From contig BCGN01000010.1 of assembly GCA_001599295.1 (NCBI GenBank), positions 186,001 to 250,000 of the forward strand: DNA of 64,000 nt, written 5' to 3'. The notes beneath the pieces are model-generated. The model was given only the letters and a program-made list of their open reading frames with translations, had not been told where the DNA came from and searched no databases. Below are positions 2,032-63,400 of the stretch, piece after piece; the stretch's first letter is position 1, and the number at the start of each line of letters is the position of its first letter. Source of the stretch: Sporopachydermia quercuum. Taxonomy: Eukaryota. Made by a program: the position numbers and the translations under genes.

Positions 2032-2243
2032 TCCTACTCCAAATAAATCATGGGGAGGATCAGCAGAGCTCTCATTATAATCAGCCAAAACCTCCCCATA
2101 GTTAACACTGAAAATATCAGAGTTTTGTTTCAATGAGTTGCCCTTTATTGCGTTCTTTGGACCGCCGGAATTCTGGCGAGTAAATCTCTCACTGATGTAT
2201 TTGCTGTTAGGATCCCCAGTGGAATCACTCCTTAGGTGAGAAA

Positions 2244-3315
2244 TTTTTTTTTTCTTTTTTACTTTCAGTATGATTCTTTCCTGTAGATAAGGGAGAGTTG
2301 ATCGATGAAAATGAATCGGTTCTATGATTAGCTGAACTTCTTAGTAATTGAGGCACGTAGTTATTGTTTTGGTTGAAGAAAGAAAGATTCTTTTGCAAGA
2401 TGTTAGCATGAATATCAGCTTGTGACATCTCTGAATTATTTCCGAATGGTACCTAAGATGCTGATCGATGATGCGAGTGTTGATTATCATGATTGAAAGC
2501 ACCACTTGTATCCAAACTTTCGGAAATACATGAGAGGCTAGCTTGAGGTGATTTGNTATATGAAAACTGCTGAGCCTTGTCTGATGAGTTGAGGGAAGAC
2601 GGATCATTTTCACAGCCAGTAGGTACTATATTTTTTGTGTCGTGAAGACGGGAATTATGCTCGGTAGTATACTGATTATTAGCATTAACATTTGTGTTGC
2701 TTGCTTATGATTCCGGAGATGAAGTTAAAAGATTCAGAATGTTATCCAAAGTTTTTCCAAACTTATCCAAACGATTCTCCATTGTGTTCATCCAACCAGA
2801 GTCAGGTATGCTTGTCGGATTTGCTGAAATACTTTCAGTATATTCTGGGATCTTCATTGAAAACACACATTCCAAGTTCTGAGCTTGACACCTTCTACAC
2901 GATGCTTCACCCGAATATTCGCATCGAATCCGAAAAAGTGTATAAATTATCAGTTAGTTTTCAGAATTGTTCATCTTGAAACGAAGCAAATGTAAAAGAT
3001 AATCAAGAACCAGTGATATTTCAATTATCGTGGTACTGTATTGTAATTTCAATTGCTTGGCTTCATAAATAATACAATTATTGGCATTATGTTACTTACT
3101 TTTGATTTTCGACAGTTGATACAGGCTTTTGGGGCTCTTGTCCGAGTTGTTGATTTATTTTGAGCTTTACTGACTGATTGCTTTGAACTTGAGTCAGCGC
3201 TTTGAGGGTGAGAATGGGATTGAGATTGGGAGTGTTGTTGGTTCCCAAGTATTTCATGATACTTTTGAGAACCCTTTAATGGCGTCCTACTTATCCTACT
3301 ATTCTGAGAAACCAT
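2244..3315 (-). pseudogene. Disrupted 5' part of the same Zn2Cys6 gene (zinc cluster, dimerisation coil, linker)
   Basis: Exon 3315-3100 (..KACINCRKSK), donor GTAAGT at 3099, branch AACTAAC, then an exon from 2929 (IRCEYSGEASCRRCQAQNLEC) completes C-x2-C-x6-C-x6-C-x2-C-x6-C. The acceptor is CGG, there are in-frame TAA (2707-2705) and TAG (2455-2453), and a frameshift is likely at the A10 run 2253-2244. Confidence 0.7.
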
Positions 3316-3700
3316 TTTGGTATGTTGTACAGTTACGCGTATCAATGATTCAAGAATAACTCCTCCGAAATCATAATTCTGGCTAGCTGTTTCACGGTCT
3401 TTCTTTTTAAAGGCAGTCTCTAGACTCAGCTATCTTAAGTCAAAGAATAGTTAGGAAATATGAGTTAAATTGATATTCTCATAAAGCAAACAATATGTTG
3501 TTCAGTCGAGTAAGGCATTCGATTTGTTATTCGATTGAGTAATAAATATTATGAAAGATCTCAACTTAGTAGGTAAAAGTATGGCGATTATTTGATCAAC
3601 ACGGTGTGATATACATACTGCTACATCGAAGGCAGCTGGTACCTTACAAAAATGAACTAAAAGTTTAAATGTATCAAGAATTAAACATGATTTGACAATG

Positions 3701-3829
3701 AGAAAATGTGGAGATTTCTCCAGAAATCTCCACTCCAGCCTTAAGGTTTACCATTTTAGGATATAAGTAAGAGGATCGGAAAACTTTATTGAAAACGACG
3801 TTTGAATATTCGGCAGAAAATGTGGAGAT
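3701..3829. promoter_or_regulatory. Repeated GTGGAGAT element: 12-bp perfect inverted repeat (3708-3733) plus 15-bp direct repeat (3701-3715 and 3815-3829)
   Basis: GTGGAGATTTCT-cc-AGAAATCTCCAC; AGAAAATGTGGAGAT occurs twice. Fits the SYGGRG with AT-flank pattern of Mig1/CreA-type sites, upstream of the Zn-cluster gene. Confidence 0.45.
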
Positions 3830-5372
3830 CTGAGAGTCAAAGAACTGTGGAACATAGATATTTCAGACATACTTTAGTAGACTGTTTTGATGAGAACTCG
3901 TTCTTCCGAGCTACATAAATCTAACTTTGAAGGGATAACTGTATGAATTCAGTTAAAGTCATTCGAAGACAAAGAATTCGATTATCCTCGGATAAAGACG
4001 GTCAGCATAATCAATTGAGAGATGAATTTATAATCAAAAATGAGTGTCTGTTAGAAAAGCTCACATTAAACTTTAATTTTCTGTAAGGATATATCCCACA
4101 CGAACATCCGTTTAAAACTATACTACAATTGAATAATGAATGTTATAGGAGACTTTATTCATAAGTGAAATCAAAAGCATTAAGTCTTCTCACTAGAATA
4201 ATATTTGTTTAGTTACCCATTGGTGAAAACCAATTCCGGTTTTGATATTCGAGTTTGAACGAATATCCCATATTCAAGGTTTCTTGGATAATCCCTTTAC
4301 TTTGGCTAAAACATATTCACTTGCTTCTTACGGTAATAACCTTAGATCTAATACAAACTGTAATTGAAACTCGGTGATTTTGCCGAACATTAAATTAACC
4401 AAAAATGGTTCTTCTGTTCAAAGTTCTTCATAATAATGGGAAACAAGAAACGAGAAACAAGGTAATAATCAATGAATCGACAGTTGAAAGAATTCATATT
4501 TGCTATGAATGTTTCTCACATAAGTCAGAGAAATAACAATTCCTTTTACGTGGTTCTTAAACTTACCTAGGCATATTTTCTTAAACAGAACAGATTTGGA
4601 GGAATGAAGGCGCTGTTCTTAACATTGTTGTTATAAATTGTTATAAATATGAACATTATATTACTATTTTGGACTAGATCTTACAATGAGGTATAATAAT
4701 AAATCAGGAATTATGAAATTAAGTAATATCTTCTATGGAGAAGGCATGAATGTGTCATTATTAAAGTTAACAGAATTGTCAATTTTGCTAGCTTGCTAAC
4801 ATCAATAGAGTAGTATCATTATCAGTCTTCTTCGGAGGAATAATATCAAGTAGTTAGTCATATGACTATGAATACTAGTTGTAAATACTCATTGTACGAA
4901 GTTCGCATTACTTTCCATGTGTTACAATTTAGTACACGTTTGTAAGTATGTGCAGTCATGTAATGATACGACGATAGTTATTAAATTGAATTGTTATTAT
5001 TTGGACTATGCCCATTGAATGTCACATATTACTGAGAACTGTCCACACTGCTTTCCTTCTCTTCGCAATAATGCATTTACTTGTATCAATCTTTTAAGGC
5101 AAGTTAGTCATTCATTAAATCTTTTGTATACATACAACTCAAAATTACTAATAATGCTACAGCTAAAGTTTGGTAACAATTGAGTCTCTACAGATTCTAT
5201 TTCGCTACTCAAATGGACGTTGAAATTATAAGTCAAGTATTTAGCAACCCCAAAGAAGGCATTGAGAAAGCTTATATTCGTTTAATTACATTTAGATTTC
5301 AAGCACTTCAACCATTTCAACTGTTCTAGTCTCAGTTTCACTTTCCAACAACTAACGATACAATTTATACAA

Positions 5373-12099: not shown

Positions 12100-12930
12100 A
12101 TGGCTGGACTTTCATTCGAAAACTATCAACGAAACCAATACCTACAAGCTCAAGGAGTTGCAGTTCCTAATGCTACCTCCACCGGTACAACGATTGTAGG
12201 ATGTCGATTCAAGGGAGGTGTTGTTATAGCTGCTGATACTCGAGCGACAAGTGGAGATATTGTTGCTGATAAGAACTGTGAAAAATTACATAGAATTGCC
12301 CCAAAGATTTGGTGTGCCGGAGCTGGTACCGCAGCTGATACAGAAATGGTGACTCAGTTGATGGCATCTAACCTCGAATTACATTCTATGTCAACAGGAA
12401 GAGAACCAAGAGTTGTGACATGTTTACAACAATTAAAACAACATTTGTTCAAATATCAAGGCCATATTGGTGCATACCTAATTCTAGCAGGTGTTGACCC
12501 CACTGGTCCAAAGCTTTTCTCCATTCAAGCTCATGGATCGACAGATGTTGGTTTCTACCAGTCATTAGGATCTGGTTCTCTGGCAGCTATGGCTGTTTTG
12601 GAATCAAAATGGAAAATGGATTTATCAAAGGAAGAAGCAATTGATCTATGTGCCGAAGCAATTGAGTCTGGTATTTGGAATGATTTGGGTTCAGGTTCTA
12701 ATGTTGATTTATGTGTGATGGAGCAAGGGAGAGATGCTGTTTTACATAGAAATTACAGGACACCTAATCAAAGAGCTCAAAAGGAAAGATCGTATAAGTA
12801 TAAGAGAGGTACCACCAGCGTGCTAAGTACGTCAATCTATGATATGGTGAATCTGGAAGAAGAAACTGTGTTTGGTTTTAATGATGCTGCTGTACAACCC
12901 GAACACATGGAGGTGGATACTCAAGCTTGA
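12100..12930 (+). CDS. PUP1: 20S proteasome beta-2 subunit
   Basis: MAGLSFENYQRN propeptide, TSTG|TTIVG catalytic Thr, GIWNDLGSGSNVD. Confidence 0.97.
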   Translation: MAGLSFENYQRNQYLQAQGVAVPNATSTGTTIVGCRFKGGVVIAADTRATSGDIVADKNCEKLHRIAPKIWCAGAGTAADTEMVTQLMASNLELHSMSTGREPRVVTCLQQLKQHLFKYQGHIGAYLILAGVDPTGPKLFSIQAHGSTDVGFYQSLGSGSLAAMAVLESKWKMDLSKEEAIDLCAEAIESGIWNDLGSGSNVDLCVMEQGRDAVLHRNYRTPNQRAQKERSYKYKRGTTSVLSTSIYDMVNLEEETVFGFNDAAVQPEHMEVDTQA

Positions 12931-14711: not shown

Positions 14712-16456
14712 TTATAATCTCTTGATAACTTCTTCGGTAAAGTTCTTGGTGGAAGAAGATCCCTTCAAATCCTTGGTTCTGTTTTCAGGACCACTAGCAA
14801 TGGTCGTCAAAACAGCTTTTTCAATCTTGTCAGCATACTGATCTAGATGCATATGTCTCAACATCATGCAAGAAGATAATAGCAAAGCTGTAGGATTGGC
14901 CAAACCCTTACCAGCAATATCAGGAGCAGATCCGTGGACAGCTTCGAAAATACTGACCTTATCGCCCATATTACCAGAAGGAGTCAATCCTAAACCACCA
15001 ATAAGACCAGAAGACAAATCGGACATAATGTCACCGTACAAGTTAGGCATAACCATGACAATATCCTTGTAAGGAGTAGGGTCAGTGACCATTTGTAAAC
15101 AGGTGTTGTCGATCAATTCAGAGGACAATTCGACATCAGGATACTCCTTAGCGACATCTCTGGCAGTTTGTAAGAATAAACCGTCAGCAAGCTTCATGAT
15201 AGATGCCTTGTGTACGACTCTAACTCTTGGCTTACCAATAGATTTGGCATATTCAAAAGCATATCTAATTACTCTTTCAGAAGCTTCCTTGGTGATCAAC
15301 TTGATAGATTGCACTACACCTGGAACAACGGTGTGTTCAATACCAGAGTATTCACCTTCAGTGTTTTCTCTAATCAAAACAGTGTCAACACCATCATAAG
15401 GGGTCTTGAAGCCAACAACTGACTTACAAGGGCGAACATTGGCAAATAAGTTGAAAGTTCTTCTCAAAGTCAAGTTAAGAGAAACGTGACCTTTACCAAC
15501 AGGAGTAGCCAAAGGTCCTTTCAAAGCAACCAAGTTCTTCTTGACTGATTCAACAGCTGTAGGGGGAATGGTGGTCTTACCATCAACGAAGATAGGAGTG
15601 ACATCGACAGGTTCCCAAACGATAGGAACCTTAGCAGCAGAGTAAATGTCCTTGACAGCCTGGGAGATCTCAACACCAATACCATCACCCTCAATCAAAG
15701 TAACAGTGTATTTGCCCTGTTTTTCTTGTTAGTATTATGCTCTTCAGAGAAAATGTTCAGCTGGCTCGATCGACGGTGGGGAACATATTCTTAGGTGCTC
15801 TGTGTTGAAGAGATGCATGGGGTGATGAGATCCGGATAAAGGGTATAACTGTATGGTATATTTGTAGAATTATTACACTCGAGGAAATATTCATTTTGGA
15901 CCTAAATTCCAATCAGGATAAACAACTCATGATAACATTCATAGTGACATTCATGTACTTCCTCAATTGGTTGATTGATCGATTGATTGATTGATTGCTA
16001 ATTATCTGCCATACCCACTGTTCGCCAGTGCTATATAAATAGGCTCTTTCTCAAACAGTTTTCATCCAATATATCAATCAACCCTCAGAGGATATTATTT
16101 TCATCCAGAACTATACTCATTACATATCATTTTCCATAACCTCTTTTCTCCTAAAGATTTCCGAAGAATATTCATTCGAATGCAACCAACACGTCCACCG
16201 ACGAATTGGAAGGCCATCGCCAATCTTCCATAATAAACATACATCACTGTTCTTCTTTCCTTCAAATGAAGCAACAGAAGTAGCATAAGTTCTGGCGTAT
16301 GATCTAGCAGCCTATAATCGTCAAATTGTTAGTAGTCCAACTAATATTTTGATTCTCATCCCTATTTCTCTCTTGATCTACCAATATCCGTCTACTTACC
16401 AAAGCTCTGCTCGACGAGATCAAAGATGATCGAAACATTTTTCTACTGGACATCAT
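14712..16456 (-). CDS. IDH2: Mitochondrial NAD-isocitrate dehydrogenase catalytic subunit 2; exons 16456-16400, 16311-16243, 15716-14712
   Basis: [24 protein letters not shown]. Two upstream exons ([19 protein letters not shown] | [23 protein letters not shown] | [12 protein letters not shown]) join by GTAAGT..TACTAAC..TAG (88 nt) and GTATGT..TACTAAC..CAG (526 nt) and supply a mitochondrial presequence. Confidence 0.93.
15970..15997. repeat. (GATT)n microsatellite in IDH2 intron 2
   Basis: gttgattgatcgattgattgattgattg. Confidence 0.7.
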
Positions 16457-18311
16457 TGTGTTTGTTCTCTTCTTTAGTTGCTATTCAAACTAATCACCAC
16501 TTAATATCAATATCAATGACAGCTCAATTGGATATTAACTGATCTTCAATTCCTATTCCTGGTATTTACATTTGATTATTGGTTACTTCGTCAATTCTTT
16601 CCCGTCTTGATTGATATATCTGGTTGTAAGGAAGAAAACTCCTCTAATAAATGCATCCCCCTGTGAAAGCACTAATCTGAGTTGGGTTTTGGGTTTGTAT
16701 TTTCAAGTTCGGGAAATGTATGCTAAACTTTAAATAGGACACAAAATAGGAGAGAGAAGATAGGAGGATGGAGGTTTCTGATTAGGTGATATGGAAATGA
16801 TCCGGACAACTCGGATGTGTTGGGAATGTATGGAATTGGTAGGGCAAGTAAGTGTTTGGTTGAATATATCAACGAATTTAATATTTATAGAAGATGAAGA
16901 GTTCTATTTGATGACAGTTAGAGGAAAATAAATTATTGGCTTAGTTAGAAATAAGCACAAGAAGCTGAGGTTGGTGAAATCGGTTAGAGGTGTGCAAGTC
17001 AATTGTCAATTGATGGACAGATGTTTATGATATTGTGACAGTTCGATGAATGATGGTTTACCTTGCATCTTGTATTGAGCAGCTGATAAATTCACTCTTT
17101 ATTCAGTATATTTATAACTTATAGAAAGCAGTTACTACAATGTGCACATACTACCTCAGCATTCTTCTTAAAAGTCATGCTTCTACTTCGGTGTCGGTGT
17201 TTATGAAAATGCACTACCTGCATGTGTCCTGCAGGTGTGCGGTATTATACTTGATCCATACAAGTTCATGGTTAGATGTAATGTGAAAGGTTCCTGAATA
17301 TATATATTGGTTGGATGGTATAGAATATCGCTCAAGAGGTCAAAACAGCTATTTATGAATAGATTATCGTTTTTACTTATAGTTGTTGCAGAAAACGGTA
17401 TTTTAACTGTATTAAGTAATATACCATTGGGGTATCACATAGTCAATGCTTCAATTGACGGCCAAGGAAATCAGTAGGCATTCATTCATATTTGACAATT
17501 CAGCGTTGCACGAAGAGAGATGCGAAAAATGGGTGAGTGAATTCAATCGTAAACTGTAAGTAGAAAATAATAAAACGAAACAAGTGAAATTGTCTATGTG
17601 CGTGGTTCGGATCTCCTCCCCGAAATTCGCACACAGTGTGATAAGCGATGTCCGAGTGCCGGCTTTCAGTTCAGAGAATTCAGAGTTGAGTGATTATGGA
17701 AAGTAAGTCTTCGAGCCGGTAATGGACTAAATGGTAGTAGCTATGAATTTTCAGCAAGAGAAAATAGACAGGAAATGATGAGATAGATACTTTTACTACT
17801 ATAATCGAGCGGAGATATTGCAATTACATTAGCACTTGATTATAGAGCTGGTTTTTTTCTGTTTTGATTTTGATTGTAGCCGAAATATAGATGTTGTTGA
17901 TGAAAGCATTGGAAAATTTTACTTTTGCAATAGCAGTCGATACTCATAAAGGATGGGAGTGAAAGGTATGTGGATCATTCAACGCAGGATGTCACAATAT
18001 TCCTATTCTCCGTTTGACTTTTACCCCGAGTTTATTCTCTAGATTTTTGTTCATTTTTGACGGAACATTCCATTTCTGTTTACGTCAACAGCAGGATAAT
18101 AGTGCGTATACAGTAGATACGTCCTCGCCATATTCGGTAGATCCGTTTTTTGTTGGAAAAAATACCCCCCCAGAAGATGAGTATCTAATCTCGATACAGT
18201 ACAACGAAGGAATATATGAAAACAATCATTCAATTCAATTGTTTATTATCACTGAATATTTTCTATTGATCGCAGTTAGCAAAGTGATTCAAATACACAA
18301 AACAAACTGTT

Positions 18312-42375: not shown

Positions 42376-44100
42376 ATGACATCAAGGTAAGTGTTAAATT
42401 TGTTAATTTGCAGTTTTTTAAGGCCCTAGCGGTAATTCCAAGTTGAGCATTTGTAGTGTTTAGGTGTACAATCAGGAAGGGCCCTATTATATATATTATG
42501 TCGGTTGTTAGTGGAGAATTGGAACTAACCATACCCATCTACTTCTTAGATATCGCGTGGAGTGTAAGTTACACCAGAGTGTCAATTATATATTTGGAAT
42601 TATATGGATTTATACCTTTTATTAAGCATTCTTGAGAATCATGAATTTTTAGAAAATTGAATAGAGTCTAACATTGGCATTTCTATCAGATCAATTGAAG
42701 ACCCATCGTCGTGATGAGTTAATTGAATGGATTAAAGGCCTTTTGGCTGTACCATTTGTTCTCCATGCAGTGAGAACACCTTCAAGAGCAGGTGAAGAAG
42801 CGAGAGTGTCAGGAGATGCCAGAAGACGTTATGCTGAGATTTTCTTCGATTTAGAAAGAATGATTGAGGAGCAAAGTAAGTAGATGATGCCATTAGACTG
42901 AGGTGACGGACGAAATATTTATAGTTCTGCTGAGAATGATAGACAGATTGTGTTATTTACAGCTTGGCTTTCATTATCAGCCGTTAATCAATTGATTGAA
43001 GACTCTTTACTGTCAATAATTATATGCTTATCTTTGCTTATCTTATATTAACATATGTAGTTCACATTGACAGGGTTGGAGCTCCGGCAGAATCCTCAAG
43101 ACTTCGTCAGTTAGTTCCAAGCGTTGGGAGATTCTTTACCCCCTTACCTTTGGAAAGGGCCTTTTACGTTGTAGATGAAAGAAGATCAATCTCTCTAAGA
43201 AGACTCGTTGCTCCTAGTTTTAATGATATCAGAATCATACTTAATATGGCCCAAGTAATGGCTTTATCTAAGGGAGATTTGAAACTAGTTACATTTGATG
43301 GTGATGTTACTCTATACGAAGATGGACAGTCGTTAGTTCAAGACAGTTTAGTGATTCCAATGCTGTTGGAGTTACTGAAACGTGGTATTTTCATTGGAAT
43401 TGTTACTGCTGCAGGCTATTCTGAGAAAACGGGCGAGAAGTATGAACAAAGACTGTCTGGATTGCTTGAGGCTGTCAATGAATCAATCCTGCTTTCGGAT
43501 GAAGAAAAACGTCATCTTTTAATAATGGGAGGGGAATCCAACTTTCTATTCCAATTTGATGCGGAAACGGGGTCTCTCAAATGGATAGAATCTGAAGAAT
43601 GGAATTTGGATGAAGTTAAAGCATGGCAAGAAGAAGACATAAAGACCGTGCTGGATATAGGAGAACTAACGCTATCAACATTGCAGAAGAAATTGGGCTT
43701 ACCTGCGAAAGTGATCCGAAAAGAAAGAGCGGTTGGAATCGTTCCTAATCCTGGTGAAAGATTGTGTAGAGAACAGCTGGAAGAATTGGTTCTTAGTTGT
43801 CAAAGAAGACTTGATATGTCGAAAGCAGCCAATAATATTTGGTTCTGCGCTTTCAATGGCGGAGCAGACGTTTGGGTTGATATTGGCGACAAATGTTTAG
43901 GTGTTAAATCGTTGCAAAGATTTCTTGGTGGTATAAATCAGAGTGAGACATTACATATTGGCGATCAATTTGCATCAATGGGAGCAAACGATTTCAAGGC
44001 CAGATTAGCTGCAAACACTGTATGGATTGCGAATCCACAAGAGACGGTTGATGTATTGAATGATCTATTAACTTACATTGATGAGAAGGACGATTTCTGA
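42376..44100 (+). CDS. ISN1: IMP-specific 5'-nucleotidase; exons 42376-42386, 42550-42563, 42690-42875, 43061-44100 (416 aa)
   Basis: Splicing rebuilds MTSRYRVEYQLKTHRRDELIEWIKGLLAVPFVLH; HAD motif LVTFDGDVTLY, FNGGADVWVDIGDK, HIGDQF, NDFKAR. Confidence 0.95.
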
Positions 44101-47768: not shown

Positions 47769-48632
47769 TTAATAGTCAAGCTTCAAATACTTAGAAACAA
47801 CTTCTCCTTTTTCTCTTCTTGTATGTCTTATCTTCGCTCTCTTCACTTTGTTAGCTAGACGTCGACCAGGAAACTTAGGGATAAATGGAGTTGCGACTGG
47901 TGCATGAGGACCTAAAATTCCGCCAAATGATGAAGGTGGTTTCAGTACATCTGAACCGAGTCTTCTGTTGACATCCTCAGAGTATTTTTGCAGCTCCTTC
48001 ATCAAACCATGACCCCATGCGTCTTTATTTTCTGGCGACTCGGGCCAGATGAAAGGCTGTTCCATATCTATAGTCATTTTCTTTACTTGTTGTTCACGAT
48101 ATCGAGGTCCTCTTGGATCTTCCCTTGTCCATTTTCTATGTAATAACTGAGTGGTGACGTTCAAAGCTCGCAGACCATAAACATGCCAGAGGTAATCTCT
48201 TAAATCCAGTTTATTGAATGATAGAGGAACGACAAACTTGGCTTGGTAAGGTGTATGTTTGGCATTTGGACGTAATAAGATAATTCTTGCGTTTGGGAAG
48301 TATACTTGCTTTTCACCAATGGTGAAATGAGCTTCTCCTTCTTCAATTGCTTTTGTTCTCTTTTCTAATAGTTTTTGAGCAAGTGTCTTGACGGGATTAT
48401 TCTTGGCCGCTGCCGTTAAATCAGTACGGTTCTTTTTCAGCCTGTTAAAAACAGATCTAGGTAATTTTGATCTTGGAGATTCGGGATAGAGCTTTTCTAA
48501 TTCTTCATCGTTCTCTAAAACTTTTTCCGGAACACCTCCAACCATTCCTGGTTTAATTGTAGCCAAAGATCTCACTTGAGTCTTCGCTGAGAGAAGCATT
48601 TTCCCGGCGGCTTTGCTCAGCAATCTAGGCAT
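47769..48632 (-). CDS. MRP20: Mitochondrial large-subunit ribosomal protein uL23m
   Basis: YFPNARIILLRPNAKHTPYQAKFVVPLSFNKLDLRDYLWHVYGL, KKMTIDMEQPFIWPE. Confidence 0.93.
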   Translation of the reverse strand: MPRLLSKAAGKMLLSAKTQVRSLATIKPGMVGGVPEKVLENDEELEKLYPESPRSKLPRSVFNRLKKNRTDLTAAAKNNPVKTLAQKLLEKRTKAIEEGEAHFTIGEKQVYFPNARIILLRPNAKHTPYQAKFVVPLSFNKLDLRDYLWHVYGLRALNVTTQLLHRKWTREDPRGPRYREQQVKKMTIDMEQPFIWPESPENKDAWGHGLMKELQKYSEDVNRRLGSDVLKPPSSFGGILGPHAPVATPFIPKFPGRRLANKVKRAKIRHTRREKGEVVSKYLKLDY

Positions 48633-49284: not shown

Positions 49285-49844
49285 CTGATGATATGGATGA
49301 TGATTTATTATTAGAGGTGAAAGCTAAAGGACATCAACCGGCTGGTAGCATTAAGAGGGTAGCTGTTGTAGGATCGAAAGGATTTTGCTGGAATTGACGG
49401 TTGGGACGGTGAATAGGATTGAGTTCCACGATCAGGCTATTAGTAGTGTCAGTTAATGTTGGTTAGAATAACAAGTTTTATTTGATTGTTCTGCTTGCGT
49501 GACGTGACGATAGTTTCAACAGAAGGCTAAGCATTGCTGAATCAATAACGAGATCAGGANAAATAGTTTCTTTATTAATCTTTTGCAATTTACCAAACGT
49601 GCAATCGCATGAAAGTAAAAGCAGGAGCGTTGATCCAAACTTTGTCAAGTAGGATCTCCCAAGTTTTTGTGGATCGTTTGGATTTGAGCAACAAAGTATT
49701 TGTACAATAGAGCACGAAGAAGTTTTAGAAACGTGCAAAACACATACGCAGAAAGAAAGCTACAAAACATTAAAAAAAAAAGAAAAGGACAAAAAAAAGA
49801 AACATCGCAAATCATCACAACAGAAACAACGAACAACATCAAAA

Positions 49845-52800
49845 ATGTCACAAGATCCAATGGAAGACCCCTATGGCTACGACGACGGTGAAGATACTGA
49901 AATAACAGCAGAAGACTGCTGGACGGTCATTTCCTCATTTTTCCATGAGAAAGGTTTGGTATCCCAGCAATTAGAATCATTCAATGAGTTCATCGAGTCA
50001 ACCATTCAAGAACTGGTGTGGGAAAACAAATCTTTAATTCTGGANCAGCCTGCTCAGCATACAACTCCCGACGACAACATCAACAAGCGATATGAAATCA
50101 CTTTTGGTAAGATTTACCTCTCTCGGCCTACGATGACCGAAGCGGATGGTACCACTCACGCTATGTATCCTCAAGAAGCTAGATTACGATCTCTTACATA
50201 TTCCTCTCCATTATATGTTGATATGCAGAAGAAAGTTCTGTATTCCAACGACGATGACCAGCCAGAAGGCGGAGAAGTTGAATGGAAAGAAGACCCTGAC
50301 GAGGAGACTACACCTGTATCCCAGGTTTACATTGGTAAGGTTCCTATCATGGTGAGATCAAAGTTCTGTGTGCTGTGGAAGATCTTAGACTACGAGTTCT
50401 ACGAGTTGAAAGAATGTCCTTATGATATGGGTGGTTATTTTATTATTAACGGTGGTGAAAAAGTCATCGTTGCTCAGGAAAGAAGTGCCGCCAACATCGT
50501 GCAAGTGTTTAAGAAAGCTGCTAACTCTCCTGTCAGTCATGTTGCAGAAATTCGTTCTGCTGTAGAGAAGGGCTCCAGATTAATCAGCAGTCTTCAAGTT
50601 AAGCTCTATGGTTCTGATAAAGGATCGAACCGTTCTATCCGTGCTACATTGCCTTATGTGCGTCAGGATATTCCTATATGCATTGTCTTCAGAGCTCTAG
50701 GTGTTGTGCCTGATGGTGATATCCTTGAACATATTTGCTACGACCAAACCGATTGGCAAATGCTGGAAATGCTGAAACCTTGCGTAGAAGAAGCCTTTGT
50801 TATTCAAGATAGAGAAGTAGCTTTAGATTTCATTGGTCGACGTGGTAGTGCTATTGGTGTTAAACGTGATCGTCGTATTCAATACGCTAGAGATGTTCTC
50901 ACCAAGGAATTGCTTCCTCATATCGAACAGCGCGAAGGCTTCGAATCTCGTAAAGCATTTTTCTTAGGTTATATGGTACATAGACTTCTACTATGTGCTT
51001 TAGAAAGACGTGAGCAAGATGATCGTGATCATTTTGGCCGCAAACGACTTGATATGGCCGGTCCTTTACTGGCCAATTTGTTCAGAATGCTGTTCAGAAA
51101 GCTCACCAGGGATATTTATCTCTATCTGCAGAAATGTGTAGAAACAAACAAAGAATTCAATCTAACGTTAGCAGTCAAACCAACAACTATCACCAATGGT
51201 CTTAAATTCTCACTGGCAACTGGTAACTGGGGTGAGCAAAAGAAAGCGATGTCTTCTAAAGCTGGTGTGGCCCAAGTGTTGAATAGATTCACTTATGCCT
51301 CAACATTATCCCATCTTCGTAGAACCAATGCTGATATAGGAAAAGATACAAAACTAGCAAGACCTAGACAGCTACATAATACCCATTGGGGGTTGGTCTG
51401 TCCTGCGGAGACTCCTGAAGGTCAATCTTGTGGTCTACGAAAGAATCTGTCTTTAATGTCTGGTATATCAGTTGGTACTCCTAGTGATCCTATCATCTCC
51501 TTCTTAGATGAATGGGGTTTAGAACCTTTGGAAGATTACGTTCCACATTCTAATCCAAATGCCATTAGAGTTTTTGTTAACGGTGTTTGGTTAGGTGTTC
51601 ATAGACATGCTAATGATTTAGTTGATACCATGAGATCCTTAAGAAGAAGATGTGTTATTTCTCCAGAAGTTTCCATTGTCAGAGACATCCGTGACAAAGA
51701 ATTCCGGATCTTCACAGACGGAGGAAGAGTCTTCAGACCTTTATTTGTCGTTGATAATGATCTAGGTGGGGAATCAACTGGTCAATTGGTCCTGACAAAA
51801 GACCATGTGATGAAATTACGAGAAGGACTAGAAGTTTCAGTGGCAGAAATCGAAACCGATGAAGCCGAAGAAGGATACGAAGCAAAATACGGCTGGAACC
51901 AGCTTCTAAAAGAGGGTGTAGTAGAATATATCGATGCGGATGAAGAGGAAACTACTATGATTGCTATGAGTCCTGAAGATTTGGAAATTGCCAGAAGAGC
52001 CCAGGAGCAAGGAGTGGAAATGGTAGAAGATAACATTGAACCATCCAAACGAGTGAAACAATTGTATAATAAAAATGCCCATACTTTCACTCATTGTGAA
52101 ATCCATCCTTCTATGATTTTGGGAGTAGCTGCTAGTATTATTCCTTTCCCTGATCACAACCAATCTCCCAGAAATACATATCAGTCAGCTATGGGTAAAC
52201 AAGCTATGGGTGTTTTTCTTACTAATTTTAATGCTCGAATGGATAACGAAGCACATATCTTATACTATCCCCAGAAACCTTTGGCTACAACTAGATCTAT
52301 GGAATATTTGAAGTTTAGAGAACTTCCCGCTGGTCAGAATGCTATTGTTGCTATTTTATGTTACAGTGGTTATAACCAAGAAGATTCAGTTATCATGAAC
52401 CAAGGAAGTATCGATCGTGGCTTGTTCAGAAGTTTGTATTATCATACATATTCTGACCAAGAAAGGAGAGAAGGTATGAACGTTGTACAAGAGTTCGAAA
52501 AGCCGATTCGCAGTAATACACTTCGTATGAAAATGGGCACCTATGAAAAATTAGAAGAAGATGGACTTATTGCTCCAGGAGTTCGTGTTTCTGGAGAAGA
52601 CATTATAATTGGTAAAACAGCACCTCTAGAACAGGATTCGCAAGAATTAGGTCAAAGAACAAAGCTGCATACGAAACGATGTGTTTCCACCCCTTTAAGA
52701 AGAACAGATAATGGTATTATCGATGATGTAATGATCACAACTAATCAAGAAGGATTGAAGTACGTTAAAGTGCGAATGAGAACAACCAAGGTTCCCCAAA

Positions 52801-53561
52801 TTGGTGATAAGTTTGCTTCGCGTCACGGTCAGAAAGGTACTATCGGTATTACGTATAGGAACGAAGATATGCCATTCACAGCCGAAGGATTAGTGCCAGA
52901 TCTAATCATCAATCCGCACGCTATTCCTTCTCGTATGACGGTTGCTCATTTGATTGAATGTTTACTTAGTAAGGTTGCTTCTTTACAAGGTTATGAAGGC
53001 GATGCCAGTCCTTTCACAGATGTCACTGTTGATGCTATCTCTAAACTTTTAGCGGAAAACGGTTACCAGTCAAGAGGTTTCGAGGTATTGTATAATGGCC
53101 ATACTGGTAAAAAATTAATGGCCCAAGTGTATTTTGGTCCTACGTACTATCAACGTCTTAGACATATGGTAGATGACAAAATTCATGCTCGTGCTAGAGG
53201 ATCTATTGTTTCCTTAACTAGACAACCTATGGAAGGTCGTGCCAGAGATGGCGGGTTGCGTTTTGGTGAAATGGAGCGTGATTGTATGATTGCTCACGGA
53301 GCAGCCTCGTTTTTGAAAGAAAGATTGATGGATGCATCTGATGCTTTCAGAGTTCATATCTGCGGTGTTTGCGGATTGATGAGTGTTATTGCTAATTTGA
53401 AGAAGAATAAATTTGAATGTCGGTCTTGTAAGAACAAGACAAATATATACCAGATTCATATTCCATATGCAGCTAAGCTTTTATTCCAAGAGTTGATGGC
53501 TATGAATATATCTCCTAGACTTTATACAGATAAGTCTGGTGTATCTAACAGGTCTTTCTGA
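49845..53561 (+). CDS. RPB2: RNA polymerase II second-largest subunit (divergent in nucleic-acid-contacting loops)
   Basis: [77 protein letters not shown] and C-terminal Zn ribbon. Confidence 0.98.
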
Positions 53562-54573
53562 ATGATTATGGTTAGGAAGTTACTATTGATTCAGAATACC
53601 TTGAAACCTGGATTTCTTTCTATTGGGGATTCCTTTGTATCAGTTACATAATATAAAAATAAAATACTGTTAATATTAGATGATGATAGAACAAGCATAC
53701 GTACAATATGTAGAAATCGGTTCTTGCTTCTTAAGGTTCGTTTGGTTTCTTGATGATTTGATCTTCTGATTTCTGTCCCTAATTAGTAGTTAGTTACCTG
53801 ATGGAGAATCCTTTTAGATACGTGGAAGTAGTTAGAATATTGATGGTTAGGGAAAGAGTTCTAGAGCAGACAATTTATTACTGTTGATTGTATTTATAAA
53901 TATTGATAAAGATCATGAGATGTATTGGATGCTGAGGGAGAAGTTATTATACTGTAATGAAAAATTGAGGAAGATGATGAAATGACGCTCTTGATTTCAC
54001 AGTGAGCTACACTGAAAGCTGTAGCAATACCCATAAATGATAATAAGAACAGGAAGTACTATCATTAGGTACGTGGATAGTCATACACTAATATTACACA
54101 GAACTGTATTCGTTCAAATAGTCTTGCTGTTTTCATGAAGTAGATACCGTATAAATTCATCTTCAGGACTGAAGGTTTGATATGGCTAGTGTGCCTGATC
54201 AATATAATTCAAATATAACTACTATCAAAATCAAAATTCATGATATTAACATATCGTACAAAAGAGATAAGTCGCTTTGTTTGTTCGGTTCAGCATCTTG
54301 GTAGAAGAATGAATTATTGAAGAATCTTCAGCAAGAAGCAATACTTGCAGCATTGGTTTAATAACGACTTAGCAGAATTTCTCAAGCTAACAGCTATTCC
54401 TATAATCAAATGATTATAAAAGGATTCTCTTCTTAGTATTCATAATGAACAAATAAGAACACCAACATCAAATACAACAATACGTCTCTAACATAAACAA
54501 CAATAACAATAAAAAACAAAATAAAACCTCTTGATTAGCCAAGTTTTATATACAAGTGAAATAACGATATGAT

Positions 54574-55772
54574 TTATAATCTGGAATTATAAGCAGCATA
54601 AGCTTCTTCCATTGCTTTCTTTCTAGCAGCTAAGTCTTCCAATTTTTGTTGAACCAATGGAGTTTCATCAGCAAAAGCAATCAGGTTTCGTTTATAAGGG
54701 TGTTCGTGTGTTTCAAAGACCTTTAAACGTTCCATTCGTGGCTTTCGTAGCTTATTACGTGGTAACATACCATAAACAGCTCTTTTCAGTAGTTCACCAA
54801 AACCTTTTCTATCTGCCATCATAGTCATTGGAACTTCCTTCAATTTACCTGGTTTTCCACTGTGGCTGTAGTAGTTTTTATCTTGCAATTTCTTTCCTGA
54901 TATTTTCAAATGTCGACAATTGGAAACGACAATATAATCCCCACAATCAACTAAATAGTTCAATGTTAGTAGCTGATATTAATTGTATAAATTGGTATAG
55001 CTTTCCCTGATCTTGTGGTCGTTATTCTCAGGTAGGATTGAGGATACTTTGAAATATATAACAATCATAATAAAGAAATGTAAAAGAAAGTGAACATACG
55101 CATAGGGTCATAGACAGGCTTATGTTTCCCCATTAATGTGTTAGCAATACTATTGGCAAGTCTACCAAGAGTTCTAGGGTCAGAGCTAACATCAACATGG
55201 TGCCAAGTTCTGGCAAATGCCAAAGAAGTCTAGTTGTCTGGTTAGTATTCTAGATGCATGATGATTGAGCAGTTCGAAATAAGTTGTATAAATGAGAGTA
55301 CATAAGTGGGAAATCCTGTACGCTTTCCTTAGGTTGGATGACAATTTTGAATATCCGTTATCGAGTGGGTTGAATTTTGAATACATCAATAATGTGGTGA
55401 AATGATTGCATAATAGAGGAGTAGTACCTCGTGTTAGATGAACTTGTAGACATNTATACCTTTTGTCTTGTTAGGTTTTAGTCTATACAGGTTTCAAAAT
55501 TGATTTTCTATCCTTTTCGTTATACAATTTCCATTATCTCTCGTTTTCTAATCCTTGCTACATCTAACAGCAATAGCGACGTAGCATCACCCATCGGTTG
55601 AATGAAAATAGGCAAGCGTAAATTGTTCATTCTCCATCTTTGCTTATACTCTTTAAGACTAATACATCCATTTGCTCATAGTTCAAAACAATCAATTCTA
55701 AATCAACCACTAGGCTGATTTTAATCATATAAGTAATTCAATTCAACATACTCTTCCAACGTGTTGCGACAT
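54574..55772 (-). CDS. MRPL23: Mitochondrial large-subunit ribosomal protein uL13m; exons 55772-55752, 55229-55100, 54950-54574 (175 aa)
   Basis: [64 protein letters not shown]; both introns GTATGT..TACTAAC..TAG. Confidence 0.95.
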
Positions 55773-56691: not shown

Positions 56692-57586
56692 ATGTTCTTC
56701 TTAGTATGTGATCTGAGCTTATTACTGCAAGTCGACGGTATCTTTTACTATGTTCATTCCCGCTCATTTTAAACAGCTTGATCATAGTTCACAATCTGAA
56801 TTTATACTAACAAACATTATTGTTTATCTACAGAAAGATCTATCACTAAACTTAACCCTGCATCCTTCATACTTTGGTCCTAACATGGAGAAGTATCTTA
56901 GACGAAGGTTACTTGAAGATGTAGAAGGAACTTGTACAGGTCAATTTGGCTACATTGTATGTGTACTAGATTGTATGAAAATTGATGTGGGAAAAGGTAG
57001 AATTATTCCTGGTAGTGGATCAGCAGAATTTGAGGTGAGATACAGGGCAGTTGTTTGGAAGCCTTTTAAAGTAAGTAAATGATGAATGGTTTACTCGACA
57101 GACGTTGAATACTATGTTGTTTTCTTGTTACTCCCAATATACATGCATTTACCATTAGTGAGCAACAACCACATTTTTCTTATTGTGCTAACAAATATCC
57201 AAGGGAGAAGTTGTAGATGGAATGGTTTCAATGGTGAACAATATGGGGATTTTTGTTAATATTGGCCCATTGTCAGTTTTCATTTCTACCCACGCTTTAC
57301 CGTCAGATATGACATTCAACCCAAGCTCAAATCCTCCTGCTTATATGTCCGAAGATCAAGTGATTGCTAAAGGTAGTAGAGTCAGATTGAAGATAACCGG
57401 TACTAGAGTTGATGTGAATGCTATCCATGCTATGTATGTTACATTCTATGAATGGTTGATTGATTGGTGACTTTTTACAAANAGTCGATATAAAATAGCT
57501 GATGATCAGTGTGCTCATTTCTTTTGATTCATTACTAACTATTTGATAGTGGGAGCTTACGGGAAGATTATTTGGGTGCATTATAA
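56692..57586 (+). CDS. RPB7: RNA polymerase II subunit 7; exons 56692-56703, 56834-57070, 57204-57433, 57550-57586 (171 aa)
   Basis: [57 protein letters not shown]; three introns, the second with an AAG acceptor. Confidence 0.95.
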
Positions 57587-58948: not shown

Positions 58949-61865
58949 TGCTGACTGAATATANAACTTGTGTTGGATCCTTAGCAGAAGAGAGGAGAAG
59001 AAAAGCAGTGACCCTGTGTTGCAACTAATGATCACTCAATTGATATGTTTGATACGACCTAAGATAACAACAGCTAGATACAGCTGATTTAATTGTTCGT
59101 GAAATACTCGATTCAAATCATAAATAAGCACATCTAAGTGTAAAACAACTACAATTGAGCTCTGTTTACTATCTAATCTATTGACTATAAATGTATTAAT
59201 AATGATGACAAGTTTAACAAATAGATTGTAATGGATGAGGGGAGGAAGAACAATTGGACCAGAAATGCACCTAAGGAGATTCGATAAAAAAAGGTCTCAT
59301 AATGATAAGGGTACAGAAACAAATCAGACCCTTGAACATAAGATCTCGCTGTACACAAAAGATAATAGCTAAGGGACTTTAAGTTAGGTTCGGGTACCTC
59401 GATAACTTTAATCCACTGTGCAGATTTAGACTTGTTCTTGGTAAAATGCGATGAGCTTAAGGGTCTATTAATGAATGGCTGTGTTTATGAAAAATTCAAT
59501 GATGGAAGGAATAAGAAAATTGTGAATGATACTAAATAGTTATTGAAATAATGGGTGTTCGAGTTTTTGTTTGTTATCTAAAGGATCAAGGTCTGACAGA
59601 CGTGCATTCAAAGGGTATTCAATGTAGTTCGTTCTGGTATGATGGTTGTTCTGTCTCCTGGAGACAGAATAGGTAAAAAGATTTTTATATTCAATTCAAA
59701 GGTCTATCAGATGCTTATGAGTGGTTTAACCTGTAAGAGAAGCTTTATTTTGGGAAGCTGTCTTTTGAAGAATTTAACTGAGTTGTATACCTGAAGTTGA
59801 TCGGAACAGAAACTGGACTGTGACTATTAGCTTCAGGTTTGATACCTGATCAATGGTTGGTACCATGAATGAATTTTTTCTTGAAAATTTACTATGACAA
59901 AAGAGAGAAAGAACAGAAACTAATTATTCAGTATATCGAGGAAAACTATAACATAAAAGAGTCTTCTATACTCTGTGTTCTACATTTAGTCTTCAACAAT
60001 AATAAACTCAAGGAAAAGACCTGAAACCTGTACAAAGCAACAATGATCATTGCAAACTGTTCTATTTGACCTTCTTGGGCCCCTTTCTTCGAGTTACCTT
60101 CGTTATTAGTGACTAATCGGAGTAATAAATATAATAGAAGCGACTACTCACAGATAGAACAAGCCTGATATTAAATCTTCCAATAAGCAAACCATTTTCA
60201 TTATTGTTTTAACATATTTTGACTCAAATTGCTATTAGCCAAATAATAATAAATATAAAAGATAGCTACAATAAAGTACCAGAACAGAAAATCTTTTCAG
60301 CGGGAAGAAATAGTCTTTATAAAGAAATCTTAATAACTATCTAAATTCTCGATAACCTGGCTAACGTCATATGAAGTACAATCAAGGATTGAAGTTTACC
60401 AAAAAAGCATGAAAGAAATCTGTAATAAACCTACAAATCTACTGTTCGAAACCAGTGTAACATTTCTCACTACAGGTATACGTACATATATGTATTAACA
60501 TGATATAACATATGAAATAATTGTTACTCTTATCAAAAATAGTAAAACGAATAATNTATAGTAATATACATATTTTCNGATGATATTTTGAGGTACCAAA
60601 CTTAATATCTCAATTCAGTAGGTGAAAGTTCTAGTTAGGCCATATAATTTTAAATACTAGAATTAGTGATTTCTGAAAATAAAAAATAAAAACTGACAAC
60701 TATAATAATAAAGCAGCCATAAAGCGTAGGTTGTTGCTTTGATAAATGTTCAAATAAGAGCATATGAGTCAATANGCCCAAGTAACAGTAGGTTAAGGAT
60801 AGTGAGTCCAGTCGTTTGAACTATTAGATGCTCTGCTTAGATACTGTCAAGGATTATTGATGAGATAGTTGAATTGATCATCGATATTGACTGCAATCGT
60901 TTCAAAAAAGTTCAATCTCTTGAATTCCATTCACTGTTCTAAGGAGAAATTTCTTATATATCAGTAGAATCAAATCAATAGCTTTTCTTGTTAGAAGTAG
61001 AATGATTTGAATCTTTACCTGGCAACGAGGACCTTAAGAAATAAAGCTGAGGAGAAATATTTATGCGTCAACTTTATTTTCTTGAGACCTTATTTGCGAA
61101 TAGGCCCTGTTATCAGCTTTACAAATTGTTCTTTACATCTACTTTAGATCTTGTGAGAACAACGATTGAAAGTTCCTCTTCATTTCTAATCTACTTAAAT
61201 TACATTTAATAACCAGAGATCAATCATAACGTGATTTTGAAGATCAGATAGTCACATCGAGATATGCGAAGAACTAGCCTTAAATCAAACCTCAATTCCA
61301 AGCATCAGCAAATGATGCTCATTCCAATGCTGAGTTGAACCATTCTTATCAATCAAGAAATTAAGAAAAGCGTAGATATTAAACTAGATTTGACAATCAA
61401 CAGAAACGTACATTTTTGGATTAGAAAAAATAGTGTCCTACGATTTGAAACGGTCATAGATCATGCTCATTAGTCCTTCAAAGTTATCCAGTCATTGGCA
61501 CATCTCAACTGATCAATCAATAGTTTGAATGTCGATACGTGCCAAAAAATAGACAATGGTACCATAGAACACCTATACTGCTGTCAATGGAAAAACTTAT
61601 CAATGGCTACTGGTATTTATTTTCATAATCTTGGGTTGCTTAACTTACAACAACTCTATCATCATCGTCAATTGTTAACGGTTGATGAATTATTCTCCAT
61701 ATTGTACAAGCATACAACGCAAAAGTAAGTTTATAGGTAATTAATTATACTANATTAGTCAAATCGATGCACTCTGCTTCTATATTAAAAACGTAGACAG
61801 TCGGTCTTTCATAGTTCTAATCAATAGTACTCCAATCCACCAACTTCATAACCTTCCAATCTCAT

Positions 61866-62669
61866 TCATGTAAATCCCTGTTTAATAGCAAATTCAGTAT
61901 GCTCATCAATCTCACTATAAAGCATAACTGTTAATTTCATTTCCTTAGTCCTTATACCCTATTCAGATTCAAACATTTCTACCAATATACTTACGTCGAT
62001 TCCCATGGATAAGCAATCCATACATCAGGATATGTGGCTCCTACGAAGTATCTATTTTTCAAAATATCATCATCAAGTGTAGCTCTCTTAGGCTTATCCT
62101 TGTTATGCAAAACAAAAATCCCAAACTTCGTACCATATAATCNATCTTCTCCAGCTTCAGAATCTGGTATTCCTTTTTCTTTAGCTTGTTCCCGGACATC
62201 CTTCTTTAGCTCTTCAACGGCATAGTGTAATGTACTTCTAGTATCATCAACTTCATCAACGATCAATATCCGTCTACCGATCAAATTTACGCCTTGACTT
62301 GAGAAATCAACCCATTGGGTTCTCTTGACTTCCATTCCTGCCGATTCAGCATCTGTTGAAAATGAATTCAAGTCTTCGTATAAGGACAAACCAATTGCTT
62401 GAATATGAATGTTCTTAGCTCCCTGAACCTTCAAGAATGTTCGAAGAATTCTCGCAGGGATAAATCCACCGCCGCCTGATGAATATATATAGAATTGCGG
62501 TTAATATAAAAGAAAAAGCATATAAACTAAAAAAATATTCGAAAAATGGTTTCAACCTACCAATGGCAATCATCAGATCAGGGTTGAACTTTTCTTTGAT
62601 CTCTTTGCCCACAGTTTTACATATCTTGTGGATATGGTTGTATGACATATATAGCTTATCTTCAGACAT
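61866..62669 (-). CDS. HPT1: Hypoxanthine-guanine phosphoribosyltransferase; exons 62669-62561, 62475-61995, 61914-61866 (212 aa)
   Basis: KLYMSYNHIH, IAIG|GGGFIPARILRTFLK, ILIVDEVDDTRSTL, AYPWEST|EIDEHT; introns GTAGGT..TATTAAC..CAG and GTAAGT..AATTAAC..TAG. Confidence 0.93.
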
Positions 62670-63400
62670 TGTAGTGAGTCGATGAATAGATATTTTTGAT
62701 TGAAATTGAAGATTTGGAAACGAAATTATTTGATTTTTATGTTTTATTTTTGTCAGATATTTGATTTGATGCTTCTATCAAAAGCATAAATAGATCAATA
62801 CAAGAAATAAAAGGCGAGCTGGATGAGTTGACAGAGGGCCTATAACAAAACTTTTAGTTTAAGCTCTGATCGTACTAGTTCAAGTAAATTGGCATTGCAC
62901 TAATACTAGGAAGGTTAAATAATTAGTGTAGGGTGTTCAGATGGAGTCCAACCGNTGAAAAACCTTGAATTCTATTGAAGGTAAAATATTCATGGTATAA
63001 GCGTTTGAGTAAAAGCAAAATGTCACGTAATATTATAGTAAATGAAATTAATTCTTCGCTCAATAAAAACTACCATCCTGGTTGCCTTTCCTTACTTTAC
63101 AGTTCTCTTTACACCCAATTGTACAAGAATTTTCAATGCTATTAATGCAGCCTCGCGGCTGCGGAAGACTTACATACTATACAAATAAGATTAAGATTGA
63201 AAAGCGGTTCACACTTTAATCGTAATCCGCATTATCCTGCATCAGTCTCATGAACTTAAAAAATGATCTACTACCAATTACTCACTTATTGAAATTGAAC
63301 TGACTTTTGTAAGTAATGGTTCATAGTATATCATAGAAAGCGATATAAAAANCCTAAATCTTCTCTAAAATGTCTATAAGTTATTGGTTTTAGTCCATGC

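Follow-up and report, generated by a model that had tools for sequence, protein, structure and literature searches.

Unusual distribution of lineage-specific substitutions over the fork and hybrid-binding domains of the RNA polymerase II subunit Rpb2 in the budding yeast Sporopachydermia quercuum

The surface of RNA polymerase II (Pol II) usually diverges, while its cleft stays fixed (PMC7111264). The fork loops of the second subunit, Rpb2, closely approach the hybrid, and the fork region can be aligned with the beta subunit of Escherichia coli (Kubicek et al., 2013, PMC3564978). Downstream strand separation and elongation on duplex DNA both depend on fork loop 2, whose conserved arginine lies at the point where the strands part (Naji et al., 2008, PMC2241882); in the open complex this loop holds the non-template strand, and the wall is the site at which the hybrid is separated (PMC7111264). 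In Saccharomyces cerevisiae, the substitutions Q481R, N484D, I502T, K537R/E, I205V, N206Y and R120C alter poly(A) readthrough and the sensitivity to mycophenolic acid (MPA) (Kubicek et al., 2013, PMC3564978). The gene described here is the RPB2 of Sporopachydermia quercuum, which lies at 49845..53561 on the (+) strand of a 64,000-nucleotide stretch of contig BCGN01000010.1 (assembly GCA_001599295.1, positions 186,001 to 250,000); this whole 64-kb stretch is referred to as the window, and all coordinates are those of the window. It is an intact, normal Pol II RPB2 orthologue of an isolated budding-yeast lineage. The anomaly of this gene is the location of its changes, not their number: other yeasts avoid changes in the Pfam domains 3 and 6, which comprise the fork, the hybrid-binding region and the wall, and S. 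quercuum does not.

The open reading frame consists of a single exon encoding 1238 amino acids, the stop codon being included in the coordinates, and contains no internal stop; a single N at 50045 leaves one residue ambiguous (X66, codon GAN, D or E). The seven Rpb2 Pfam domains PF04563, PF04561, PF04565, PF04566, PF04567, PF00562 and PF04560 are found in this order, all far above their cut-offs. Among solved structures, the product matches best the Komagataella Pol II Rpb2 (5x4z_B, 2163 bits), and the Pol II chains of S. cerevisiae, Schizosaccharomyces pombe and mammals score 2036, 2002 and about 1480 bits, as opposed to 705-733 bits for the second subunits of Pol III, about 600 bits for those of Pol IV and Pol V and 357-395 bits for those of Pol I. 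The catalytic ED is unchanged at residues 846-847 (E846/D847), K989, K997 and H1107 are present, and the clamp zinc cysteines (CxxC...CxxC) are found in the alignment with S. cerevisiae. The clean frame and the intact catalytic motifs described in a first-pass annotation, which was made from the sequence alone, were thus seen again; the residues are the equivalents of ED 836-837, K979, K987 and H1097 in the active site of S. cerevisiae.

An assembly error, a sequencing error or a wrongly chosen genetic code could also produce unusual residues at conserved positions, and isolated single N do occur in the window, 37 in number or about one in every 1.7 kb, including the N at 50045 within the RPB2 frame. 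They might stand for heterozygous sites at which an ambiguity code was masked. However, Logan contigs from three runs of two studies, each spanning 49803-53700, are identical to the assembly across RPB2, with no differing letter and no gap, although the sample of one of these runs may be the assembly's own source. Moreover, the changes spare the universal invariants, and conservative replacements are frequent among them. Of the 13 CTG codons, 11 stand at columns in which leucine is the commonest residue and none at columns with a serine or alanine majority, so that the standard code applies. An error of any of these kinds is practically negligible as an explanation, and the pattern described below is not an assembly artefact.

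For the comparison within the fungi, the best 120 full-length Rpb2 sequences were taken from 486 proteins passing a search with residues 18-110. This set covers most of the budding-yeast orders together with Basidiomycota and Mortierella, and 90 sequences were left after removing those at least 95% identical. The highest identity of any of the 89 fungal sequences to the S. quercuum protein is 79.1%. In the tree calculated with FastTree, the S. quercuum protein is the sister of a single protein, P0188, and this pair is placed below a large clade of Pichiales, Serinales, Phaffomycetales and allies. With a threshold of 95% conservation, the 90 fungal sequences yield 599 columns, of which S. quercuum is changed at 30, the next highest numbers within the Dikarya being 19, 15 and 13, and P0188 at 5; 15 of the 30 changes were found in no other sequence of the set. 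The conserved columns account for 30 of its 199 departures from the consensus, compared with 45 of 769 in five other lineages that have no close relatives in the set (p = 7e-5). In addition, the changed columns cluster along the chain, with 11 neighbouring pairs at most 6 residues apart as opposed to 5.0 +/- 1.9 expected (p = 0.0036).

The position of the changes was described by the mismatch of each domain to the budding-yeast consensus, ranked among 76 sequences. The fork (Pfam Rpb2_3, residues 477-540, 51273..51464 on the (+) strand) differs at 18.8% of its positions, as opposed to 3.1% in the median and at most 9.4% in the other sequences (rank 1 of 76, z 6.7); domain 6 (hybrid-binding and wall, residues 763-1134) differs at 15.3%, with a median of 6.7% and a maximum of 11.8% (rank 1 of 76, z 3.9). 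The peripheral domains, which provide an internal control, are ordinary: the protrusion has 20.7% (median 17.9%, maximum 37.6%, rank 29 of 76, z 0.18), the lobe 15.5% (median 12.7%, maximum 21.5%, rank 29 of 76, z 0.49), the external domain 28.1% (median 25.5%, maximum 42.2%, rank 23 of 76, z 0.56) and the clamp 6.4% (median 7.4%, maximum 14.9%, rank 39 of 76, z -0.21). The usual pattern of Pol II is thereby reversed, with an ordinary periphery and a fork and wall that are the most divergent among the 76 budding-yeast sequences. The 12 mismatches within the 64 positions of the fork exceed the maximum of 8 found in the 119 other full-length fungal sequences, including those of Basidiomycota and Mortierella. 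At a finer scale, the outlying windows of 40 residues are 481-520 (z 6.7), 921-960 (z 4.8), 841-880 (z 3.0), 1121-1160 (z 2.2) and 521-560 (z 2.0). The domains 3 and 6 contain 20 of the 31 conserved-site changes of S. quercuum (65%) as opposed to 54 of 185 (29%) in 17 other yeast lineages (odds ratio 4.4, p = 3.4e-4), and with this share it ranks first of the 40 sequences that have at least 8 such changes.

The motifs named in the first-pass annotation were all located, within about 10 nucleotides of where it had placed them, and the alignment to solved Pol II chains confirmed its list of replacements, in which S208, Y459, S480, T791, M792, R857, P1110, Q1112 and S1123 of S. cerevisiae read G, F, A, N, E, H, S, V and A. 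In the following, substitutions are given in S. cerevisiae numbering and residue ranges in that of the S. quercuum protein; all elements lie on the (+) strand and were assigned by alignment. In homology region B, residues 204-209 (50454..50471) carry S208G, L212I and I213V, and the motif INGGEKV is found at 50445-50465. Y459F (residue 455) and S480A (residue 476) flank fork loop 1 at 51207..51275, where the motifs GLKFSLATG (51198-51224) and AGVAQVLN (51261-51284) are located; in shorter Rpb2 sequences, position 459 is Y in 120 of 121 and position 480 is S in 119 of 120. Fork loop 2 (residues 496-506, 51330..51362), with the reference TPIGRDGK(I/L)AK, is altered by T500A, P501D, R504K, G506T and K510R, so that 5 of its 11 positions are changed, while its length and its basic residues are kept. 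A proline occupies position 501 in 118 of 119 full-length and in all 115 shorter fungal sequences, and none of them has D there; the replacement of R504 by K is also found in 10 of 120 fungi. Beta-D loop II (residues 528-532, 51426..51440) shows A532S and V536R, the latter turning GLVKNL into GLRKNL, and an R at this position is absent from 104 shorter sequences and from 74 diverse eukaryotes.

Further along the chain, residues 801-804 (52245..52256) carry T791N, M792E and N794H, turning RMDTMAN into RMDNEAH (motif at 52236-52256). In the segment of residues 841-880 (52365..52484), 9 of 40 positions are off the consensus (z 3.0, rank 1 of 76), among them F855Y and R857H; the motif RSLYYHTY is found at 52428-52451, and the catalytic ED at 846-847 lies unchanged inside this segment. 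Residues 921-960 (52605..52724), which we take to be part of the wall in the nomenclature of Cramer et al. 2001, are off the consensus at 13 of 40 positions, including D936C and E945D (z 4.8, rank 1 of 76); here, the reference sequence HSKRDASTPLRSTENGIVD is replaced by a different reading of 19 residues. At 53202..53243, in a segment that presumably corresponds to switch 3, the alignment with S. cerevisiae and Komagataella shows GPMQVL changed to GSIVSL (P1110S, Q1112V), followed by S1123A; the 21-residue motif of the first-pass annotation spans 53193-53255.

The first-pass annotation had stated that its proposal would be refuted if the same residues were common in many unrelated yeasts; the changes are, however, shared neither within the fungal set nor with the shorter sequences. 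Among the shorter proteins, no relative with the same fork states was found, the best match having 81% identity over residues 405-505. No metagenome contig fitted a degenerate DNA pattern for NADIGKDTK, and the 77 related loci found in metagenome contigs, the best of which are 75-79% identical, do not carry the states of S. quercuum.

We regard the chances as about even that RPB2 is here a functional gene which has undergone a lineage-specific shift in selective constraint restricted to the cleft. In this case, replacement would have been confined to particular Rpb2 domains after the split from the lineage of P0188, the nearest sampled relative: the nucleic-acid-facing fork loop 2, beta-D loop II, positions 791-794, the wall and switch 3 would have evolved two to six times as fast as is usual in yeasts, and the peripheral domains, the catalytic residues and the pan-eukaryotic invariants would have been kept under ordinary constraint. 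Most likely, such a process would consist of successive adaptive and compensatory substitutions, in which the loops co-evolve with one another and with partners such as Rpb1 and TFIIB, where matching changes would be expected. The cleft changes would then lie close together in the folded protein and would have been selected. From the roles of the loops in the literature on the fork and the wall, an altered handling of both ends of the bubble would be expected, in which the holding and separation of the strands, and with them elongation, pausing, termination or start-site behaviour, may differ. Such a shift would probably be co-evolutionary and affect the handling of the bubble or elongation and termination.

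Several observations weigh against a shift in constraint, and most of them favour drift, neutral or nearly so, along a long branch, in which case the cleft pattern would have no functional meaning. In a lineage without sampled relatives every change since an ancient split looks private, and no relative above the 79.1% mentioned was found among the 89 fungal sequences, nor did the searches of shorter proteins and metagenomes yield one. When conservation was judged in a clade-aware manner, leaving out relatives at least 80% identical, the count of 31 for S. quercuum was approached by 28 in P0232, 28 in the cluster of Hanseniaspora uvarum, 24 in Saccharomycopsis and 23 in H. osmophila, so that the total is no extreme outlier; 4 of the 28 changes of P0232 are, however, S-to-L artefacts of CUG-Ser translation. 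The replacements are no more radical than those in other lineages (mean BLOSUM62 score 0.65 versus 0.94, p = 0.24). Compared with a uniform spread, the excess in the cleft domains is weak, with a binomial p of 0.083 for the strict Pfam limits and of 0.035 for a wider fork of residues 452-540, the limits of which were set after seeing the data. Furthermore, 24 of the 30 new residues are present in at least one of 74 diverse eukaryotes. It should also be considered that the fungal set was picked by N-terminal similarity and does not include Saccharomycetaceae, and that Pup1, described below, is the only full control protein.

On the other hand, drift should also have raised the divergence of the peripheral domains, which rank 23-39 of 76, and other isolated or fast lineages place 29% of their changes in domains 3 and 6 as opposed to the 65% in S. 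quercuum. The number of fork mismatches, higher than in all 119 other fungi, and the ordinary Pup1 likewise argue against drift, which we consider unlikely, though not far-fetched. The notion of the first-pass annotation that change is focused on the cleft was thus supported by the fork and domain 6, both of which rank first, but it is weak when measured against a uniform spread (p 0.035-0.083), and the "many" replacements it had noted exceed the chance pattern, while their total is only a little above those of Hanseniaspora and Saccharomycopsis (23-28).

With regard to the overall rate, a relative-rate comparison showed that S. quercuum is faster than P0188 (129 versus 75 unique changes, p = 1.6e-4), equal to Wickerhamomyces (111 versus 101) and Kuraishia (110 versus 95), and slower than Hanseniaspora (105 versus 159 and 102 versus 175). 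As a control from the same window, the proteasome protein Pup1 (12100-12927) was aligned with the best 120 of 5819 homologues passing the search and is changed at 1 of 133 conserved columns (rank 32 of 114). Rpb7, judged by eye, also looks ordinary compared with the chains of Komagataella, S. pombe and S. cerevisiae, with two K-to-R changes at shared positions in its first 83 residues. Genome-wide fast evolution, which the first-pass annotation had named in its refuting condition, was considered as a candidate explanation and was rejected on the basis of Pup1 and of the ordinary peripheral domains of Rpb2.

Two database sequences of Rpb2, P0226 and P0232, were left out of the comparisons of radicalness, domain share, single domains and 40-residue windows. 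They show S-to-L changes at invariant serine columns (10 and 4, respectively), as expected from mistranslated CTG codons in CUG-Ser yeasts, and such artefacts inflate the apparent divergence in public protein sets.

For the wider comparison, a eukaryotic set of 74 Rpb2 sequences with a length of 1080-1320 amino acids was taken from the 150 best representatives; the best matches are protists with 40-57% identity. At the 103 columns with a conservation of 95% or more in this set, S. quercuum shows no change, and 3 of 167 columns are changed at a threshold of at least 90%. Among the new residues, H794 is present in 49 of the 74 eukaryotes and thus in the majority, I212 in 39, V213 in 34, A480 in 26, S532 in 25, and G208 and V1112 in 10 each. 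An A in place of S1123 was found in 27 of 74 eukaryotes and in 12 of 89 fungi, the M792 column is freely variable in eukaryotes, and P1110 is retained in 63 of 73 diverse eukaryotes, with S in a single one. Since they occur in other eukaryotes, most of the new residues appear to be tolerated states, which counts against the proposed shift. The remaining six, Y486F, P501D, V536R, T791N, M792E and R1060A, were found in none of the 74. The first-pass annotation had described the replaced residues as invariant from yeast to human; this is overstated for S208, S480, Q1112, S1123 and M792, which vary among the eukaryotes. For S480, a table in Kubicek et al. (2013, PMC3564978) lists the same residue in the human protein.

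In the literature searched on contacts of Rpb2 R857, T791, Q1112, S480 and Y459 with nucleic acids nothing relevant was found, and a search on R504, K507, D505, K510 and R512 returned modelling papers only. Titles and the beginnings of abstracts found for positive selection in Rpb2 of the Saccharomycotina contained no relevant report. A more specific proposal is that the nucleic-acid-facing loops were rebuilt under positive selection, either in escape from an unknown natural product acting on the fork and hybrid pocket or in a re-tuning of strand separation and start-site scanning with matched changes in Rpb1 and TFIIB. We consider this improbable as a specific account; if true, it would mean that the most conserved part of the enzyme exists in nature in a viable form altered at several sites.

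The first of these two routes would amount to resistance at the target site, in which Pol II no longer responds to a natural product or toxin that binds in the fork and hybrid pocket, by analogy with rifampicin-resistant rpoB of bacteria. The concentration of the changes in the fork, including the radical replacements P501D, V536R, T791N and M792E absent from the other eukaryotes sampled, would suit such an origin. The clusters of rifampicin resistance in bacterial rpoB are homologous to the fork beside the hybrid, and target-site substitutions there are tolerated and selectable. However, any change in the fork maps to this region by definition, so that the mapping is not independent evidence. 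No inhibitor is known to bind the fork pocket of eukaryotic Pol II. In addition, the changes reach the wall and switch 3 and are thus spread wider than one pocket, and Pfam scans of the window revealed no biosynthetic or toxin genes. Escape from an inhibitor therefore seems distinctly improbable. If an inhibitor were nevertheless their cause, the changed sites would mark a druggable pocket that is new for eukaryotic Pol II.

The loss of the usual avoidance of the cleft domains could also result from relaxed constraint, if the genome contained a second, canonical RPB2 and the present copy were specialised or decaying. The absence of changes at the 103 pan-eukaryotic columns, the intact catalytic residues and the clean frame do not fit a decaying copy, and in each of the three runs, with about 17 million contig letters each, only one contig matches the RPB2 stretch with at least 80% likeness. 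The gene is also found at its ancestral position and not at a new one, as would be expected for a specialised paralogue. It lies between the genes of the mitochondrial ribosomal proteins uL23m (yeast MRP20-like, 47769..48632, (-) strand; 3j6b_P, E 1e-66) and uL13m (yeast MRPL23-like, main exon at 54577..54978, (-) strand; 3j6b_H, E 6e-37), followed by RPB7 (56692..57470, (+) strand). Other genes of the window are ISN1, an MTR10-like importin, a PNS1-like transporter, TRS120, an ADE8-like gene, PUP1, MUS81 and UBA2. We assume that uL13m also adjoins RPB2 in S. cerevisiae and that the order in the window corresponds to two interleaved sister regions of that yeast, YOR150-161 on chromosome XV and YDR386-409 on chromosome IV. 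With these locus names, 5373-58948 would be a block from before the duplication, and since the gene order is that assumed for the ancestor of the two sister regions, the synteny argument of the first-pass annotation for the ancestral copy holds. Relaxed constraint owing to a second copy is accordingly very improbable.

The remaining part of the window shows some features of its own. The block at 5373-58948 begins with UBA2, MUS81, PUP1 and the ADE8-like gene, continues with an isocitrate or isopropylmalate dehydrogenase, TRS120 and the PNS1-like and MTR10-like genes, and ends with ISN1, MRP20, RPB2, MRPL23 and RPB7. RPB7 has two introns with canonical signals: the first (about 56704-56833) follows MFFL, with GTATGT at 56704, TACTAAC near 56806 and the acceptor near 56833, and the second (about 57071-57204) contains GTAAGT and TGCTAAC. 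ISN1 is present in two frames on the (+) strand (42665-42880 and 43024-44100), suggesting an intron, and the uL13m frame is without the first 34 profile positions, suggesting an upstream exon; from these three genes, introns seem common in this region. The gene density is low for a yeast, with about 22 open reading frames of at least 120 amino acids per 64 kb. In 58950-63400, 15800-18300 and 2050-5370, no Pfam-recognisable frame of at least 70 amino acids was found except for a weak Zn2Cys6 match at 2708-2953 on the (-) strand, and scans of the 64-kb window for tRNA and Rfam families gave no match.

RPB2 is a standard marker of fungal phylogeny, and a domain-specific acceleration can mislead the placement of the lineage of S. 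quercuum. Furthermore, the altered fork loop 2, beta-D loop II, wall and switch 3 exist here as one set in a viable yeast and could be transferred to S. cerevisiae to probe how these loops govern elongation, termination and start-site behaviour.

Compared with canonical fungal Rpb2, as represented by S. cerevisiae (YOR151C, 1i3q_B) and Komagataella (5x4z_B), the S. quercuum protein has the same seven domains, catalytic residues, zinc cysteines and length, whereas its fork loop 2, beta-D loop II, positions 791-794, parts of the wall and switch 3 contain residues found in no other fungal sequence examined. The second subunits NRPD2 and NRPE2 of plants (8hil_B, 7eu0_B) also have altered cleft residues, but they are separate paralogues, scoring about 600 bits against the S. 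quercuum protein, which is a Pol II orthologue at the ancestral position. Fork loop 2 is also the subject of the study on the archaeal RNA polymerase subunit B by Naji et al. (2008, PMC2241882), in which the conserved basic residue equivalent to R504 was important for the separation of the downstream strands; in S. quercuum it is conservatively replaced by K. The archaeal work used deletion and alanine mutants, whereas the loop described here keeps its length and basic residues in spite of its five changes. Closest in position are the laboratory rpb2 alleles of S. cerevisiae (Kubicek et al., 2013, PMC3564978), which hit identical or neighbouring positions of the fork and of the homology regions A, B and D: T500A and S480P both occur among them, I205V and N206Y neighbour the changes in region B, K537R and K537E, which affect termination, adjoin V536, and Q481R, N484D, I502T and R120C likewise lie beside sites changed in S. 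quercuum. However, these alleles are single induced mutations, whereas in S. quercuum a dozen natural changes occur together in a viable wild lineage.

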